DNA of 64,000 bases from Polaribacter sp. (GTDB lineage: Bacteria > Bacteroidota > Bacteroidia > Flavobacteriales > Flavobacteriaceae), in assembly GCF_965660385.1 (NCBI RefSeq), contig NZ_CBFHZT010000009.1, positions 8,646-72,645 on the forward strand. The letters are read 5' to 3'. Under the pieces are notes generated by a model, which was not told where the DNA came from, did not search any database, and was given only the letters and a program-made list of their open reading frames with translations. The translations under genes were made by a program, and so were the position numbers. This document shows positions 3,675-38,591 of the stretch, one piece after another; the first letter of the stretch is position 1; every line of letters starts with the position of its first letter.

Positions 3675-5528
3675 TTAAACCTCATCTGCAACAATTTTTT
3701 CTTTGTAAGAATTGCTAATTTCTTTACCTAAGTAAGATAATACCAAGTTTTTCTTTTCCATTTTTTCTTTTTCAACCTCTGCAATTAAGTACAAACCTTT
3801 TTCATTTTCAATAAACAAAGGAATCGATTTTTCTTCTTTAGCTAATAAAGCTAAAATAGCATCATACTCTTTTTCGTTATTAATTTTAACTTCCTTAATG
3901 GTTGGGTTTTCTCTAAACGCCTCACTTAAATTAATATAATCATCATTAGGCGTAAAAAAACCTAAACGCTCTTTTTCTTTAGCATTAACAACCTCTAAAG
4001 AAGAAGCCAATCTAAAAGAACCATGCTCTCCAAAAATATCAGAAAATGTAGATAATGCATATTTATTTACGGCATCGTTTCCTGTCATAGCAATTAAATA
4101 GCCCACATCACTCAACTCTATATTGCTGCCCAAATCATCATCATAAATATTTACTGCAATCGCCTCAAAATCATCTTCTTGCGCTTGATCAATAAAGTTT
4201 TTATTAGAATCTATCAAAACCACTCTTTTCCCTTTATCTCTTAAATATGAAGCAATTAATCTTGATGGATTAGAAGCACCAACAATTAAAATTGCATTTG
4301 AACTCTTTAAAAAAACACCCACCATTTTAGAAAATAATCTTGCTGTTGTTGCATTTAACAAAACAGTACCTAACACAATCATAAACACTAAAGGTGTTAT
4401 GTATTCTGCACCTTCAACACCTTGTTTTAACAGTTTACTACCAAATAAAGAGGCAATACCTGCTGCTACAATACCTCTTGGTCCTACCCAACTTATAAAA
4501 AGTTTTTCATTAAACTTCAATTTTGAGTTTAAGGTGCTTGCAAAAACGGCTAAAGGCCTTATTACAAAGACTACAATAGCAAATAAAGATGCTGTTTTCC
4601 ATGTATAGAGCAACATTAAATCTTGCATATTAATATTTGCAGCAAGCAAAATAAATAAAATTGAGATGAGTAAAACACTCAAAGATTCTTTGAAGTATAG
4701 CAATTCTTTTATATTATTTAGTTTTCCATTTCCTAAAACCATACCCATAACTACTACTGCCAAAAGTCCAGATTCATGAGCAAACATTTCTGATTCTACA
4801 AAAACCAGCAAAACCGTAGATAAAGACACTACATTTAATAAATAATGTGGAATTAGTTTTTTGTTAACTGCATAAGCAAGTGCATGGGCAAAAGTAAAAC
4901 CGAAAGTTGTACCAAAAAGTAGAATTTTACCAAATTCAATCAATGCAGTTTTGGTAAAACCACCACCACCACCAACACTAATAAATTCGAAAACCAATAC
5001 AGCTACTAAAGCTCCAATTGGGTCTATTAAAATCCCTTCCCATTTTAAAACGGTAGAAATATCTCTTTTTAAAGGGATGTTTCTTAAAATTGGAGTAATT
5101 ACAGTTGGCCCAGTAACAATAATTAAACCAGAAAAAAGAAAAGACAAATCCCAACTTAAATTAAATACGTAATGCGCAACTATACCTGCACCTAAAAAAG
5201 TTATCGCAGAACCTAAAGTGATTAATTTGGTTATTACTGGCCCTACGTGTTTAATTTCACTCCTTTTTAAAGTTAAACCACCTTCAAACAGAATAATACT
5301 TATGGCCAAAGACACAAAATAATACAAACTTTCACCTGGAAACAAGCCTTTTTCTCCATTCCAAACGGGTTCAATCCATTTTGTACCATCTTCACTCAAA
5401 TAGGTTGCTGCAATTGGCCCAACTAATAAACCTACTAAAATTAAAGGCAATATAGCAGGGATTTTAAATTTCCAAGCCACCCATTGTGCCAATATTCCTA
5501 AAATAATAATTCCTGCTAATTCTAACAT
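3675..5528 (-). CDS. CPA1/NhaP-type cation:proton antiporter with C-terminal TrkA-N-like domain
   Basis: About 12 TM helices, LFEGGL, TGPTV, EGILIDP and GPRGIVAA motifs, C-terminal Rossmann-like ILIVGAS. Confidence 0.9.
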   Translation of the reverse strand: MLELAGIIILGILAQWVAWKFKIPAILPLILVGLLVGPIAATYLSEDGTKWIEPVWNGEKGLFPGESLYYFVSLAISIILFEGGLTLKRSEIKHVGPVITKLITLGSAITFLGAGIVAHYVFNLSWDLSFLFSGLIIVTGPTVITPILRNIPLKRDISTVLKWEGILIDPIGALVAVLVFEFISVGGGGGFTKTALIEFGKILLFGTTFGFTFAHALAYAVNKKLIPHYLLNVVSLSTVLLVFVESEMFAHESGLLAVVVMGMVLGNGKLNNIKELLYFKESLSVLLISILFILLAANINMQDLMLLYTWKTASLFAIVVFVIRPLAVFASTLNSKLKFNEKLFISWVGPRGIVAAGIASLFGSKLLKQGVEGAEYITPLVFMIVLGTVLLNATTARLFSKMVGVFLKSSNAILIVGASNPSRLIASYLRDKGKRVVLIDSNKNFIDQAQEDDFEAIAVNIYDDDLGSNIELSDVGYLIAMTGNDAVNKYALSTFSDIFGEHGSFRLASSLEVVNAKEKERLGFFTPNDDYINLSEAFRENPTIKEVKINNEKEYDAILALLAKEEKSIPLFIENEKGLYLIAEVEKEKMEKKNLVLSYLGKEISNSYKEKIVADEV

Positions 5529-28359: not shown

Positions 28360-30039
28360 CTACTTGTTCATTTTAATAGAATCTATTCGTTTTTGCAGTC
28401 GTTTTATTTCTTCTAACTTTTTTTGTTGGTTAGATAAGAGCTGAATGGAATCTAAAATTGCTCGGTTTTGCTCTAAAATGGTTTTCTCTTTTTCGAAATA
28501 AATATTTTGGTTTTCACTGGTTCTCCAGGCTTCATTAAGTTGCAAATATACTTGTTCATTCCATTTGCTGGGGTGTTTGGCATCAATCCAAATTACATCT
28601 CTATATTCTGCATCAATTAGCGCCAAATCTGGAGTTGCAGCACCATCAAATTGTGCATTTTCTTTTTTTATCGCAGAAATGGTACTGAGAAAAAACATAC
28701 GTTTACGACCTGCAATTTCCTTAATATAAGGTCTAAATTCTACAGGTTTGTTTACAGACCAATCGTATTCTTTACGAGATTCAATGACCTTTAATGGCAT
28801 TGCAGAAACGCCTGCATAACCTTCTTTTTTAGCAGCATGATCGTAAAAATACAACGCATTTGTACCATCTGCAGGAATAAAAACGCTGAAGGTTAAACTG
28901 GTTCTTTCTGCACCCACAGGTTCTAAACCAAACCAATGGTATAAACCACTGTAAGCACCAGTTTTGGTATCAGAAAAATCGAAATCGGTTACATAAGGTT
29001 GTTGGTTTTGATCGTCTGGTAATTGTGGAATTTTAACTGCAGTTTTCATATTCCAAGGCAAAGGATCTGAAAATCCACCTAAAAATTTTAAACTTTCAGC
29101 CTGTAATTTAGATACTTTTTCTGATAAGGTATTTTGTTTGGTTAAATAAGCATAGTTTTGCATTGCTGAAGGCGCAATGTACTTTCCAATACCAATGGTT
29201 ATTCTTTCAAAATAATTATGATCTCCATTATCAATAACCATTACACCACCAAAAGTTGGATATGGAAAAAAGAAACCTTTCCATTTTATCAAGCTCACCA
29301 CTTGTACCCAAGCTCCTTTATCGTTTTTCATATAATAGGTATCGCTTGGTTCGTAGTTGAACAACTGCCAAAGGTTAAAACGCTGTACAACTGCATTGTA
29401 AGTGTTTCTGCTAAATTTTAAAGATTCTCCGATTGTGAATTTAACCGGAATTCTATTTTCATTAGAAAACCTTGGAAAAGGTGTGGTACTAGAAACCGAA
29501 AAAACTTCTTCAGTATCGTCTTTAATGCCTTGCCAAGTATATTTTTCGGTAGGTTGAATAGCCATTGTCCATTGATTGTTATTATCTACTCTTACCAAGT
29601 GTGGTAAGGAAACATCTTTGGTTTCGCCTACAGATTCATTTGCCATAGAAAAGATATTTCTTAAAGGCTGAATTCTTTCGTTTTGGGTTAAAGGCAACTC
29701 TACAATTTCTATGCGATTTAAGTCGTTGAACACATTATAAGTCTGCATATAATTGTACATTTTGGAATGGAATCCAATATAATATATCAATCCGAAAAAA
29801 AGCGCTAAAAGACCTAATACACCAATGCGTTTGCCTGTACTCGCTAATTTCCTGAATTTTCGTAGGCCAAAAAACAAGACCATAAAGCACAATAAAATAA
29901 TGAAAATATATTTTCTGAAAAATAATAATGCTGGTTGATAATCATCTCTTAAAAAGAAGAGTAACCCAATTATCAATAATGATAAAAGAATGATGTTTCT
30001 TTTTTGTTTTGCTCCTTTTTGCCAATATGTTTTGATCAT
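28360..30039 (-). CDS. Hypothetical membrane protein (about 3 N-terminal TMs plus a large soluble domain)
   Basis: 559-aa ORF with hydrophobic N-terminal helices and a C-terminal coiled coil. No family recognised. Confidence 0.75.
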   Translation of the reverse strand: MIKTYWQKGAKQKRNIILLSLLIIGLLFFLRDDYQPALLFFRKYIFIILLCFMVLFFGLRKFRKLASTGKRIGVLGLLALFFGLIYYIGFHSKMYNYMQTYNVFNDLNRIEIVELPLTQNERIQPLRNIFSMANESVGETKDVSLPHLVRVDNNNQWTMAIQPTEKYTWQGIKDDTEEVFSVSSTTPFPRFSNENRIPVKFTIGESLKFSRNTYNAVVQRFNLWQLFNYEPSDTYYMKNDKGAWVQVVSLIKWKGFFFPYPTFGGVMVIDNGDHNYFERITIGIGKYIAPSAMQNYAYLTKQNTLSEKVSKLQAESLKFLGGFSDPLPWNMKTAVKIPQLPDDQNQQPYVTDFDFSDTKTGAYSGLYHWFGLEPVGAERTSLTFSVFIPADGTNALYFYDHAAKKEGYAGVSAMPLKVIESRKEYDWSVNKPVEFRPYIKEIAGRKRMFFLSTISAIKKENAQFDGAATPDLALIDAEYRDVIWIDAKHPSKWNEQVYLQLNEAWRTSENQNIYFEKEKTILEQNRAILDSIQLLSNQQKKLEEIKRLQKRIDSIKMNK

Positions 30040-30062
30040 TTTTCTTTTAATGTTTGGTTTAA

Positions 30063-30139
30063 GATGTTTGAGGTTTGAGGTTTGAGGTTTGATGCTTGAT
30101 GCTTGATGTTTGATGTTTGATGTTTGATGTTTGATGTTT
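30063..30139. repeat. Tandem heptamer array, 11 units of GAKGYTT
   Basis: Counted GATGTTT, 3x GAGGTTT, 2x GATGCTT, 5x GATGTTT. An inverted degenerate partner lies at 30203-30230. Confidence 0.95.
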
Positions 30140-30229
30140 ATAACTCAAAACAATTTATTTTAAATTTTAACTATTTATTGTTGGAATCCTAAACTAACAT
30201 GTTACATCCAGCATCAAGCTTCCAACTCC

Positions 30230-30751
30230 CTACAACAATCCTTTATCTTTTAAACGCTCTCTTGCACTTTTTTCATTTGGTTTAGGTGCTTCTTTTTTCT
30301 CCTCAATTTCTTCTATTTCTTTAACATCTGTAGTTTGTAAATCTTCAATAAAATCTTTTCCCTTTTCAATGACATCTTGAAATTTGTCTTCTAAAGATTC
30401 TGATTTTTGATCAATAACTGTGGATGACTTAAAAATGAATCCTGCAACATAAGTACCTATTAATGTTCCAAAAATCATAGAAGTAAATAAAGAAATGGTT
30501 GCCAAATCTATAGGAATTAAAAAACGAGTAATTATAATTGCGATTAAAAAAAATGCTGTAATAAATACCAAACGTAATAAAAAAGATTGTTGATAAACAA
30601 AGCCTTTTTTATCTGTTGCTTCCATTTGCAATTCTTTGGAATTCATCAATTTATTAAAAAAACGGTATACTTTATTTCCTTGAGATTCTCTCCAGAAAAT
30701 AACTGCTCCTAATAAAATGGAGGCTATAAATATGATAAGTTCTAGTGTCAT
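30230..30751 (-). CDS. Hypothetical 3-TM membrane protein with charged C-terminal tail
   Basis: 173-aa ORF, three hydrophobic helices, tail ending KSARERLKDKGLL. Confidence 0.75.
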   Translation of the reverse strand: MTLELIIFIASILLGAVIFWRESQGNKVYRFFNKLMNSKELQMEATDKKGFVYQQSFLLRLVFITAFFLIAIIITRFLIPIDLATISLFTSMIFGTLIGTYVAGFIFKSSTVIDQKSESLEDKFQDVIEKGKDFIEDLQTTDVKEIEEIEEKKEAPKPNEKSARERLKDKGLL

Positions 30752-32388: not shown

Positions 32389-32399
32389 AAAACAAAAAA

Positions 32400-32628
32400 G
32401 GCAACAATAAGATGTATTTTTTTTCCCTTCGTACTCTCTAATGACTGAATTGAACAACTCCAGTGAAATACGTACTGGTGTATTATTTCACTTCGCAGAA
32501 GTTTAACCGGAAATAGTACACCAGTACGTATTTCACAAGTTAAGTTCGAGTCAGTGACGCGTTCGTTGTCTAGTTACAAGATTGGCGATCCACCAATCGA
32601 AATGCAAGGTTTTTATCTTATTGTTACC
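32400..32628 (-). ncRNA. Retron msr-msd ncRNA (predicted)
   Basis: Terminal inverted repeats 32615-32628 / 32400-32413 (14 bp, one G-U), 8-bp stem-loop at 32580-32598, and a long hairpin with a perfect 20-bp core (32463-32482 / 32517-32536). Ends 11 nt before the RT ATG. Confidence 0.85.
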
Positions 32629-32646
32629 AAGTTTTAAATATATTAA

Positions 32647-37355: not shown

Positions 37356-38591
37356 TTAAAAATTATTTCTTATCGTTTCAACAACCCAATCTTTTTTAGA
37401 ATCTTGCCAAGTTTTGAAATTTTCGTAAAAATCTTCTTTATCATACCAATACCAAAACAGCACATCTTTTGGAGCAATATTTATGAGTAATTTCCAGATT
37501 AAATCTTGATGATGTGGTCGTAAAGAAGAATGTGGTTTGTGCAAGGCAAAATAAAATTCTTGATCTACAAAATCCTTGATTTTTGTATCGCTATTTGTTG
37601 TTTTTTTCTCTAAATAACGTTCAACACTCATTACTTTTTTACGATTATTGATATCGAGTTTGTTCAAGTAACTTTTGAAAAGCATTTTATCTTCTAAAAT
37701 TTCATTTACAGGATGTTGTGTTTCCTGAAGCGCTTCTCCGAAAATAAATTTTTTAATGCGTTCATATCGTTTTGTAGTAACTTCTTTTGCCAAATCACAC
37801 TCAATAATAAAATGATCTTTTAATTGCATTATCAACTCAGGTTGTAAAATATGAAACATTAAAACATCATAAGCAGTGTCATCAATCGCTTCTTGATACG
37901 CTTCCCAGTTTTCGAAAACTAAAATTGGTGTGATAAAATTTCTTAATAAATATATTCCTCCAAATGCTTTGGTATAAAAAGAATCTGAGGTATAAATAAT
38001 AGAATCTAAAGTGATGTTTCTATTTCTTAAATCGCCATATTTTTTTGCTGATGTTAATAATTGTTGATGAATGTTTTCATCGATAAAATTATTACCTCTT
38101 TTAAAAATTTCTATCAGTTTTAATTGTTCTTCCTTTGCTTTTTTTAAATTATCTATCAAATGAAACCTGATTGTAACCTCTTCATATTTTAAAACTTCTA
38201 ACGGTTCGTAAAACACATCAATATTCTGATCAAAATCGATACAAATGGCTGAATCTCTAGTAATATCTTGAATTTTTTGTTGATGCGTTCTAAATACCAA
38301 CTTCATTAATTCTGTATCAAAAGAATGAAATGGATTGTAAATTGGTAAGCCTTTTTGCAAAGGTGTAATTAAAATTGCATGCGGATTTGCTTCACCATTG
38401 TTTAAATAGAATATTTCGTTTTTTTCTTCAGCAATTTCTGGACTCCAACCAATTCCATCAATAGAAAATGAGGTCAATTTGGTTTTAGTAAAACCCAATT
38501 TCACCAAACATTTATTGTAACGTTCAACTAATTTTCCACTGATGGGAATTAGTTCGCTTCTGTATAAATTTGCTTGTTTTAGTTTGTTCAT
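37356..38591 (-). CDS. Conserved hypothetical protein (DUF6638-like)
   Basis: LVERYNKCL, IDGIGWSPEIA and FYTKAFGG blocks recalled as DUF6638. Family assignment unverified. Confidence 0.6.
   Translation of the reverse strand: MNKLKQANLYRSELIPISGKLVERYNKCLVKLGFTKTKLTSFSIDGIGWSPEIAEEKNEIFYLNNGEANPHAILITPLQKGLPIYNPFHSFDTELMKLVFRTHQQKIQDITRDSAICIDFDQNIDVFYEPLEVLKYEEVTIRFHLIDNLKKAKEEQLKLIEIFKRGNNFIDENIHQQLLTSAKKYGDLRNRNITLDSIIYTSDSFYTKAFGGIYLLRNFITPILVFENWEAYQEAIDDTAYDVLMFHILQPELIMQLKDHFIIECDLAKEVTTKRYERIKKFIFGEALQETQHPVNEILEDKMLFKSYLNKLDINNRKKVMSVERYLEKKTTNSDTKIKDFVDQEFYFALHKPHSSLRPHHQDLIWKLLINIAPKDVLFWYWYDKEDFYENFKTWQDSKKDWVVETIRNNF

Follow-up and report, generated by a model that had tools for sequence, protein, structure and literature searches.

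The minus strand of the window (the whole stretch of 64,000 nucleotides of Polaribacter sp. DNA analysed here) carries three genes with intact reading frames, encoding a WGR-domain protein, a SWIM-domain protein and a reverse transcriptase (RT). The WGR and SWIM genes overlap by 11 bp, and a spacer of 258 nt on the same strand separates the stop codon of the SWIM gene (32649-32647) from the ATG of the RT gene (32388). The RT displays the signatures NAEPH (at 232), YVDD (at 340) and VTG (at 390), and thus both the NAxxH and VTG motifs required of retron RTs; its match to the PADLOC model RT_XIII (5e-177) is far better than that to the next-best model (4e-87). Type XIII retrons correspond to RT clade 10, which includes Mx162, Mx65, Sa163 and Ne144, and comprise a SWIM zinc-finger protein (cluster 114) and a WGR-like protein with HEAT/ARM repeats (cluster 216) (Mestre et al., 2020; PMC7736814). 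As RT_XIII, SWIM_XIII and WGR_XIII all match the genes flanking the spacer (Table 1), this locus is therefore a type XIII retron, with the RT, SWIM and WGR components by which these authors define the type. The order WGR-SWIM-ncRNA-RT is kept in approximately 40 homologous loci. Genes for a 173-aa protein with three TM segments and a 559-aa membrane protein (downstream), and for a DUF6638 protein (upstream), were also considered as parts of the retron and rejected, since they are kept only in the closest, Polaribacter-like loci. These flanking genes (window 28360-30751 and 37356-38591) represent local synteny outside of the conserved retron module.

Table 1. Features of the type XIII retron locus, in window coordinates and in the order of transcription.
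Feature	Positions	Strand	Evidence or remark
WGR + HEAT/ARM accessory protein, 1011 aa	34265..37300	-	PADLOC WGR_XIII 5e-293; Pfam WGR 1e-6
SWIM-domain accessory protein, 542 aa	32647..34275	-	PADLOC SWIM_XIII 1e-222, full length; adjoins the ncRNA upstream
TATATTTA, Bacteroidetes-type -7 box, 6 nt upstream of a1	32635..32642	-	TAnnTTT[GA] scored in 29/36 homologues
msr-msd ncRNA, 229 nt	32400..32628	-	fold z = -7.5; covariation in 36 homologues; 86% identity and same ends as Terminal 1687
a1, 5' arm of terminal stem, GGUAACAAUAAGAU	32615..32628	-	pairs with a2 32400-32413
CCUU, 5' half of inner 4-bp helix, beside the priming site	32606..32609	-	pairs with AAGG 32426-32429 in MFE and consensus folds
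Predicted branching (priming) guanosine in UUGCA	32605	-	first unpaired G past CCUU, facing G32430
msr stem-loop GAUUGGUG-GAU-CGCCAAUC	32580..32598	-	8 bp, 4 compensatory, 100% of cells paired
msd, predicted reverse-transcribed, 139 nt	32431..32569	-	mapped from Terminal 1687 RT-DNA; msDNA would be the + strand, 32431 to 32569
Long msd hairpin	32444..32555	-	44 pairs in consensus helices 5-7, 24 of them compensatory
Variable cassette, 5' arm, ACGUACUGGUGUACU	32515..32529	-	22 alleles among the 36 sequences, each matched by compensating changes in the 3' arm
Conserved apical element AUUUC[CGGUUAA]ACUUC-UGC-GAAGUGAAAU	32485..32514	-	most columns invariant in 36 sequences
Variable cassette, 3' arm, AAUACACCAGUACGU	32470..32484	-	partner of the 5' arm, alleles as there
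G-AAGG: opposing G (32430) and 3' half of inner helix	32426..32430	-	CGAAGG block conserved
a2, 3' arm of terminal stem, AUCUUAUUGUUGCC	32400..32413	-	pairs with a1 32615-32628
U6 run directly past a2, 5 nt ahead of the RT ATG	32394..32399	-	at least 5 T after a2 in 35/36 homologues
Retron reverse transcriptase, 504 aa	30874..32388	-	PADLOC RT_XIII 5e-177; Pfam RVT_1

The spacer folds with a minimum free energy (MFE) of -81.5 kcal/mol, versus -48.5 +/- 4.4 for 200 shuffled sequences, none of which was as stable (z = -7.5). The fold consists of a 14-bp terminal stem (a1/a2, with one U.G pair), an A-rich internal loop (AAAAA at 32614-32610 facing 12 nt at 32425-32414), the 4-bp CCUU/AAGG helix, one msr hairpin and a long msd hairpin. 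The latter has a perfect core of 21 bp (GUGAAAUACGUACUGGUGUAC and its exact reverse complement), a C.A mismatch and then 6 bp, and is capped by an ACUUC-UGC-GAAGU tip, with 7 nt (CGGUUAA) bulged out on the 5' side. An earlier note made from the sequence of this stretch had already drawn most of this architecture: the pairing of 32628-32615 with 32413-32400, the internal loop of 5 nt versus 12 nt leading to the CCUU/AAGG helix, an msr-like stem-loop at 32598-32580, and an apical ACTTC-GCA-GAAGT mini-hairpin, which we see as the tip described above. The start and end it had given to the RNA, 18 nt past the SWIM stop and 11 nt ahead of the RT ATG, agree with the positions of these codons. Its long hairpin (32553-32442, with a core of 20 bp and 6 bp after one mismatch) exists with that layout, but the consensus limits are 32555-32444 and the core has 21 bp, both trivial differences. 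An Rfam scan of the spacer at a permissive E-value returned nothing at gathering score, only sub-threshold chance hits (e.g., miRNA hairpins), and the description of the RNA as unannotated thus holds with regard to Rfam, but not with regard to the literature, where a near-identical RNA is already published (see below).

Homologous loci were collected by a genome scan with the RT (31 loci, mostly from Flavobacteriaceae and including the genera Polaribacter, Tenacibaculum, Flavivirga, Lacinutrix, Algibacter, and Aquimarina) and by a metagenome scan with the apical motif (14 more true loci, including the distant, GC-rich L040 and L043). An alignment of 36 distinct homologous spacers has a consensus fold with 98.2% of its cells paired and with both-sided changes at 36 of its 71 pairs, a level of covariation reached by none of 500 column shuffles, while slid registers are only 36-48% paired. 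The consensus fold recovers every helix that the earlier note had described, with covariation in the terminal stem, the msr stem-loop and the msd hairpin. In the terminal stem, 8 of the 13 scored pairs have changed on both sides, and G.U intermediates occur frequently. Other parts hardly vary: CCUU is near-invariant and common to other type XIII ncRNAs, UUGCA is invariant in the 36 homologues and in 9 published type XIII ncRNAs, the msr loop with its closing bases (GGUG-AUCGCC) is conserved across phyla, and the invariance of the apical element extends to L040 and L043. One homologue, L024, has UCUU with AAGA in its raw sequence, such that the pairing would persist; it was left out of the pair counts because MAFFT misaligned this row. 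The locus of a Hyphomicrobiales MAG (L025), with an RT 52% identical and with SWIM and WGR genes, has a spacer (upstream of 4001) that lacks the apical motif and retains only a GGTGGATCACC-like msr hairpin, and this spacer is probably a diverged ncRNA of the same type XIII family.

Outside of a variable cassette in the msd stem, the pairwise divergence of the ncRNA is 0.02-0.09 versus 0.45-0.65 at 4-fold sites of the RT gene. These flanks thus evolve approximately 10 times slower, and are therefore under strong purifying selection. This bears on the idea that the retron no longer works in this genome and survives only as a relic of vertical inheritance with a disused ncRNA. The type correlates moderately with host 16S, suggesting vertical inheritance (Mestre et al., 2020; PMC7736814), and our searches of the literature turned up no phenotype, anti-phage defence or other, for the type. 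Yet the constraint on the ncRNA flanks, the three intact reading frames and the RT motifs all argue for a retron in use, and we consider a relic very improbable.

The published RNA is that of Retron Terminal 1687 (Mestre-1687), a type XIII retron of Tenacibaculum dicentrarchi listed in the census supplement of Khan and colleagues. Its ncRNA is 230 nt long, it makes RT-DNA in E. coli (0.35x Eco1 by PAGE), this RT-DNA was sequenced as the reverse complement of ncRNA nt 60-199, and in human cells it supported 12.3% precise editing, 105x Eco1 (Khan et al., 2024; PMC10849725). The Terminal 1687 ncRNA is letter-identical to two of our homologues (L003/L004, at 3758-3987), and identical to window 32628-32400 at 199 of 232 positions (86%), with equal first and last bases. 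The spacer is the msr-msd ncRNA of a type XIII retron, as the earlier note had claimed of a retron ncRNA, and the ends first proposed there match those of the published, experimentally used ncRNA. The sequenced RT-DNA also agrees with the assignment of the long hairpin to the msd and of the short stem-loop to the msr. When moved to the window, its limits place the first template base at C32431 and the last near A32569, for a predicted msDNA of 139 nt that folds as DNA at -35 kcal/mol (z = -8.5). The termination point near A32569 derives from RT-DNA that an orthologue made in E. coli, and may differ by a few bases natively. In Terminal 1687, the RT-DNA begins at the template base immediately 5' of the opposing G. 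Judged from the sequence, G32605 and G32430 flank the CCUU/AAGG helix in the window as a priming guanosine and its opposing G would, and we infer from this and from the start mapped in Terminal 1687 that G32605 is the predicted branch point.

The pattern of substitutions differs between the two main stems. A G.U pair in an RNA becomes a C.A mismatch in the cDNA. Among changed cells of the msd stem, 2 are one-sided versus approximately 120 two-sided, while the terminal stem has 37 versus 22 (Fisher p = 1e-20); the one-sided changes in a1/a2 are often G.U intermediates, and G.U is nearly missing from the msd stem (columns 5-18 with 228-241 for a1/a2 and 87-125 with 146-183 for the msd in alignment A1). 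Such strict Watson-Crick pairing is expected if the msd must also fold as DNA, and the scarcity of G.U in this stem alone thus lends indirect support, of an independent kind, to the hairpin being copied into DNA. This near-exclusion of G.U is a signature, readable from sequence, that parts a reverse-transcribed stem from RNA-only stems.

Putative signals for transcription frame the ncRNA on both sides. The -7 promoter consensus in Bacteroidetes is TAnnTTTG. In five of the homologues scored as lacking the corresponding box upstream of a1 (Table 1), our script had anchored at the wrong TTGCA, and inspection by eye shows the box; the two distant homologues L040 and L043 alone truly lack it. Essentially all Flavobacteriaceae homologues have it, including L009 where the preceding sequence is different. 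Two loci carry extra sequence between the SWIM gene and the ncRNA (L009, 2805-3757, ∼950 bp; L023, 3625-3753, ∼130 bp), and the -7 box is still attached to the ncRNA despite the insert. The U run past a2 might act as a terminator or attenuator. The conservation of both elements suggests that the ncRNA is transcribed from a promoter of its own, and that a leaky stop may precede the RT gene. The conserved U run just ahead of the RT start would also fit a structure that makes no DNA at all, but serves as a regulatory RNA or a terminator/attenuator between the SWIM and RT genes. The sequencing runs that contain the stretch are DNA assemblies only (X1 probably being the source sample, and X2 and X3 assemblies of relatives), and leave room for such a role. 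We nevertheless regard it as exceedingly improbable, given that the RT of Terminal 1687 copies a near-identical RNA into DNA in E. coli, that the strict Watson-Crick constraint is confined to the msd stem, and that the motifs of the priming site are common to other producers of RT-DNA.

The best explanation is thus that this spacer encodes the msr-msd RNA of a type XIII retron, arranged in the order WGR/HEAT, SWIM, ncRNA and RT, with the RNA predicted to be copied to msDNA. We are highly confident of this reading. To judge from the sequence, transcription would start from the -7 box. As expected by homology with Terminal 1687, the RT would prime at the 2'-OH of G32605, begin copying at C32431 and halt near A32569. 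The product would be the 139-nt msDNA, folding back into the long hairpin. By analogy with other retron types, the complex of RT and msDNA might be read by the WGR/HEAT and SWIM proteins, or might restrain them.

The sole variable part of this nearly frozen ncRNA is a cassette of 14-15 bp in the middle of the msd stem, which is always Watson-Crick compensated. In a relative from run X2 that is 94% identical to the window, the differences lie mostly within the cassette. One allele, GGUACUAGUGUACC, was found in seven sequences of different lineages (Flavivirga, Aquimarina, and MAGs or metagenome contigs). The divergence of the cassette stays level at ∼0.28, without correlation to RT divergence (Mantel r = 0.03, p = 0.35), whereas that of the flanks tracks the RT (r = 0.36, p = 0.0005). 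We considered whether the cassette evolves faster than neutral, and rejected this as an overall excess, as its mean of ∼0.28 is below the 0.45-0.65 of 4-fold sites; close pairs in which the cassette exceeds 4-fold divergence are L019/L020 (0.40 versus 0.215) and the window with L001 (0.60 versus 0.48). No column of RT, SWIM or WGR shared significant mutual information with the cassette; the lowest family-wise p (0.077) came from a gappy C-terminal RT column. The arms are internally palindromic in several alleles (e.g., GGTACTATAGTACC), and the alleles are not mutually independent. At the junction of cassette and apical element, most alleles have a C.A mismatch (32515-32516 with 32483-32484; A1 columns 119-120 with 151-152), which would be G.T in the msDNA and is missing from a few (L005, L007, L024, L031, and L034).

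The simplest reading is that the cassette is a spacer helix in which length and pairing matter and sequence does not. Alternatively, it could be a specificity module on the msDNA duplex, read by the retron's own WGR and SWIM proteins or by a phage trigger, with its diversity selected or swapped between lineages, but this appears rather unlikely to us. A literature search for a hypervariable msd segment found no relevant description, and this pattern of variability may be a new side observation. As a freely variable segment of 14 bp, the cassette is a probable site for inserting donor or barcode sequence; should its variation be selected, it would mark the part of the msDNA that carries specificity.

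Retron biology as a whole is little changed by one more orthologue of a type XIII retron with published ncRNA and RT-DNA. The RNA itself is not new: it is an ordinary further member of a published, experimentally validated ncRNA family. The ncRNA of this genome is now firmly annotated, including its priming G and the boundaries of its msd, and the alignment of 36 sequences, with its strong covariation, could seed a covariance model for Flavobacteriaceae type XIII ncRNAs.

Terminal 1687 and the window share gene order, the a1/a2 boundaries, UUGCA, the msr hairpin, the apical element and the ACGAAGG start site, and their RTs are ∼70% identical. They come from different genera, carry different cassette alleles (GGUACUAUAAUGCC versus CGUACUGGUGUACU) and are set apart by a few substitutions, located in a1/a2 and the linker. 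Other type XIII ncRNAs of the census, from Chitinophaga, Comamonadaceae, other Proteobacteria and Cyanobacteria, align with the window by a fixed order of motifs: a1, spacer, (C/U)CUU-G-CA, GGUG-UCGCC hairpin, GC-UCAC and long msd hairpin, followed by GAGU, GUC, CGA-G, spacer and a2. Five of them with sequenced RT-DNA of ∼135-150 nt (Terminals 1673, 1703, 1710, 1731, and 1732) have the same order of elements as the window, with a column identity of only ∼50%. Only the Flavobacteriaceae group, together with L040 and L043, has the apical element UUUCCGGU...ACUUC...GAAGUGAAA.

In every one of these aligned type XIII ncRNAs, unpaired spacers part the priming motif from a1 and the start-site motif from a2, and the inner CCUU/AAGG helix forms in the MFE folds of both the window and Terminal 1718. 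As these shared motifs are spaced from a1/a2, the split terminal stem around CCUU-G/G-AAGG appears to be a family trait of type XIII, and so does the long msd hairpin. The earlier note had contrasted the split stem with the continuous a1/a2 of model retrons and had called the msd hairpin unusually long; the contrast is true against Ec86-type models, but the novelty it implied falls away across the published type XIII ncRNAs, and the length is normal for a type with RT-DNAs of ∼135-150 nt. The myxobacterial Retron-Mxa1 (Mx162) and Retron-Sau1 (Sa163) have an RT of the same clade as well as SWIM and HEAT genes like those of the window (Mestre et al., 2020; PMC7736814). Their msDNAs are also long (162-163 nt). 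The Sa163 ncRNA, as given in the census, lacks the CCUUGCAA...ACGAAGG motifs of the window; a separate ncRNA structure family inside type XIII had been assigned to Sa163, and clade 10 was already noted for having its own ncRNA structure families (Mestre et al., 2020; PMC7736814). Finally, Retron-Eco1 (Ec86) resembles the window in its a1/a2 stem, branching G and opposing G, msr hairpins, msd hairpin and downstream RT, but differs from it by a continuous a1/a2 stem, an msDNA of 86 nt, other accessory proteins and an RT of another clade.
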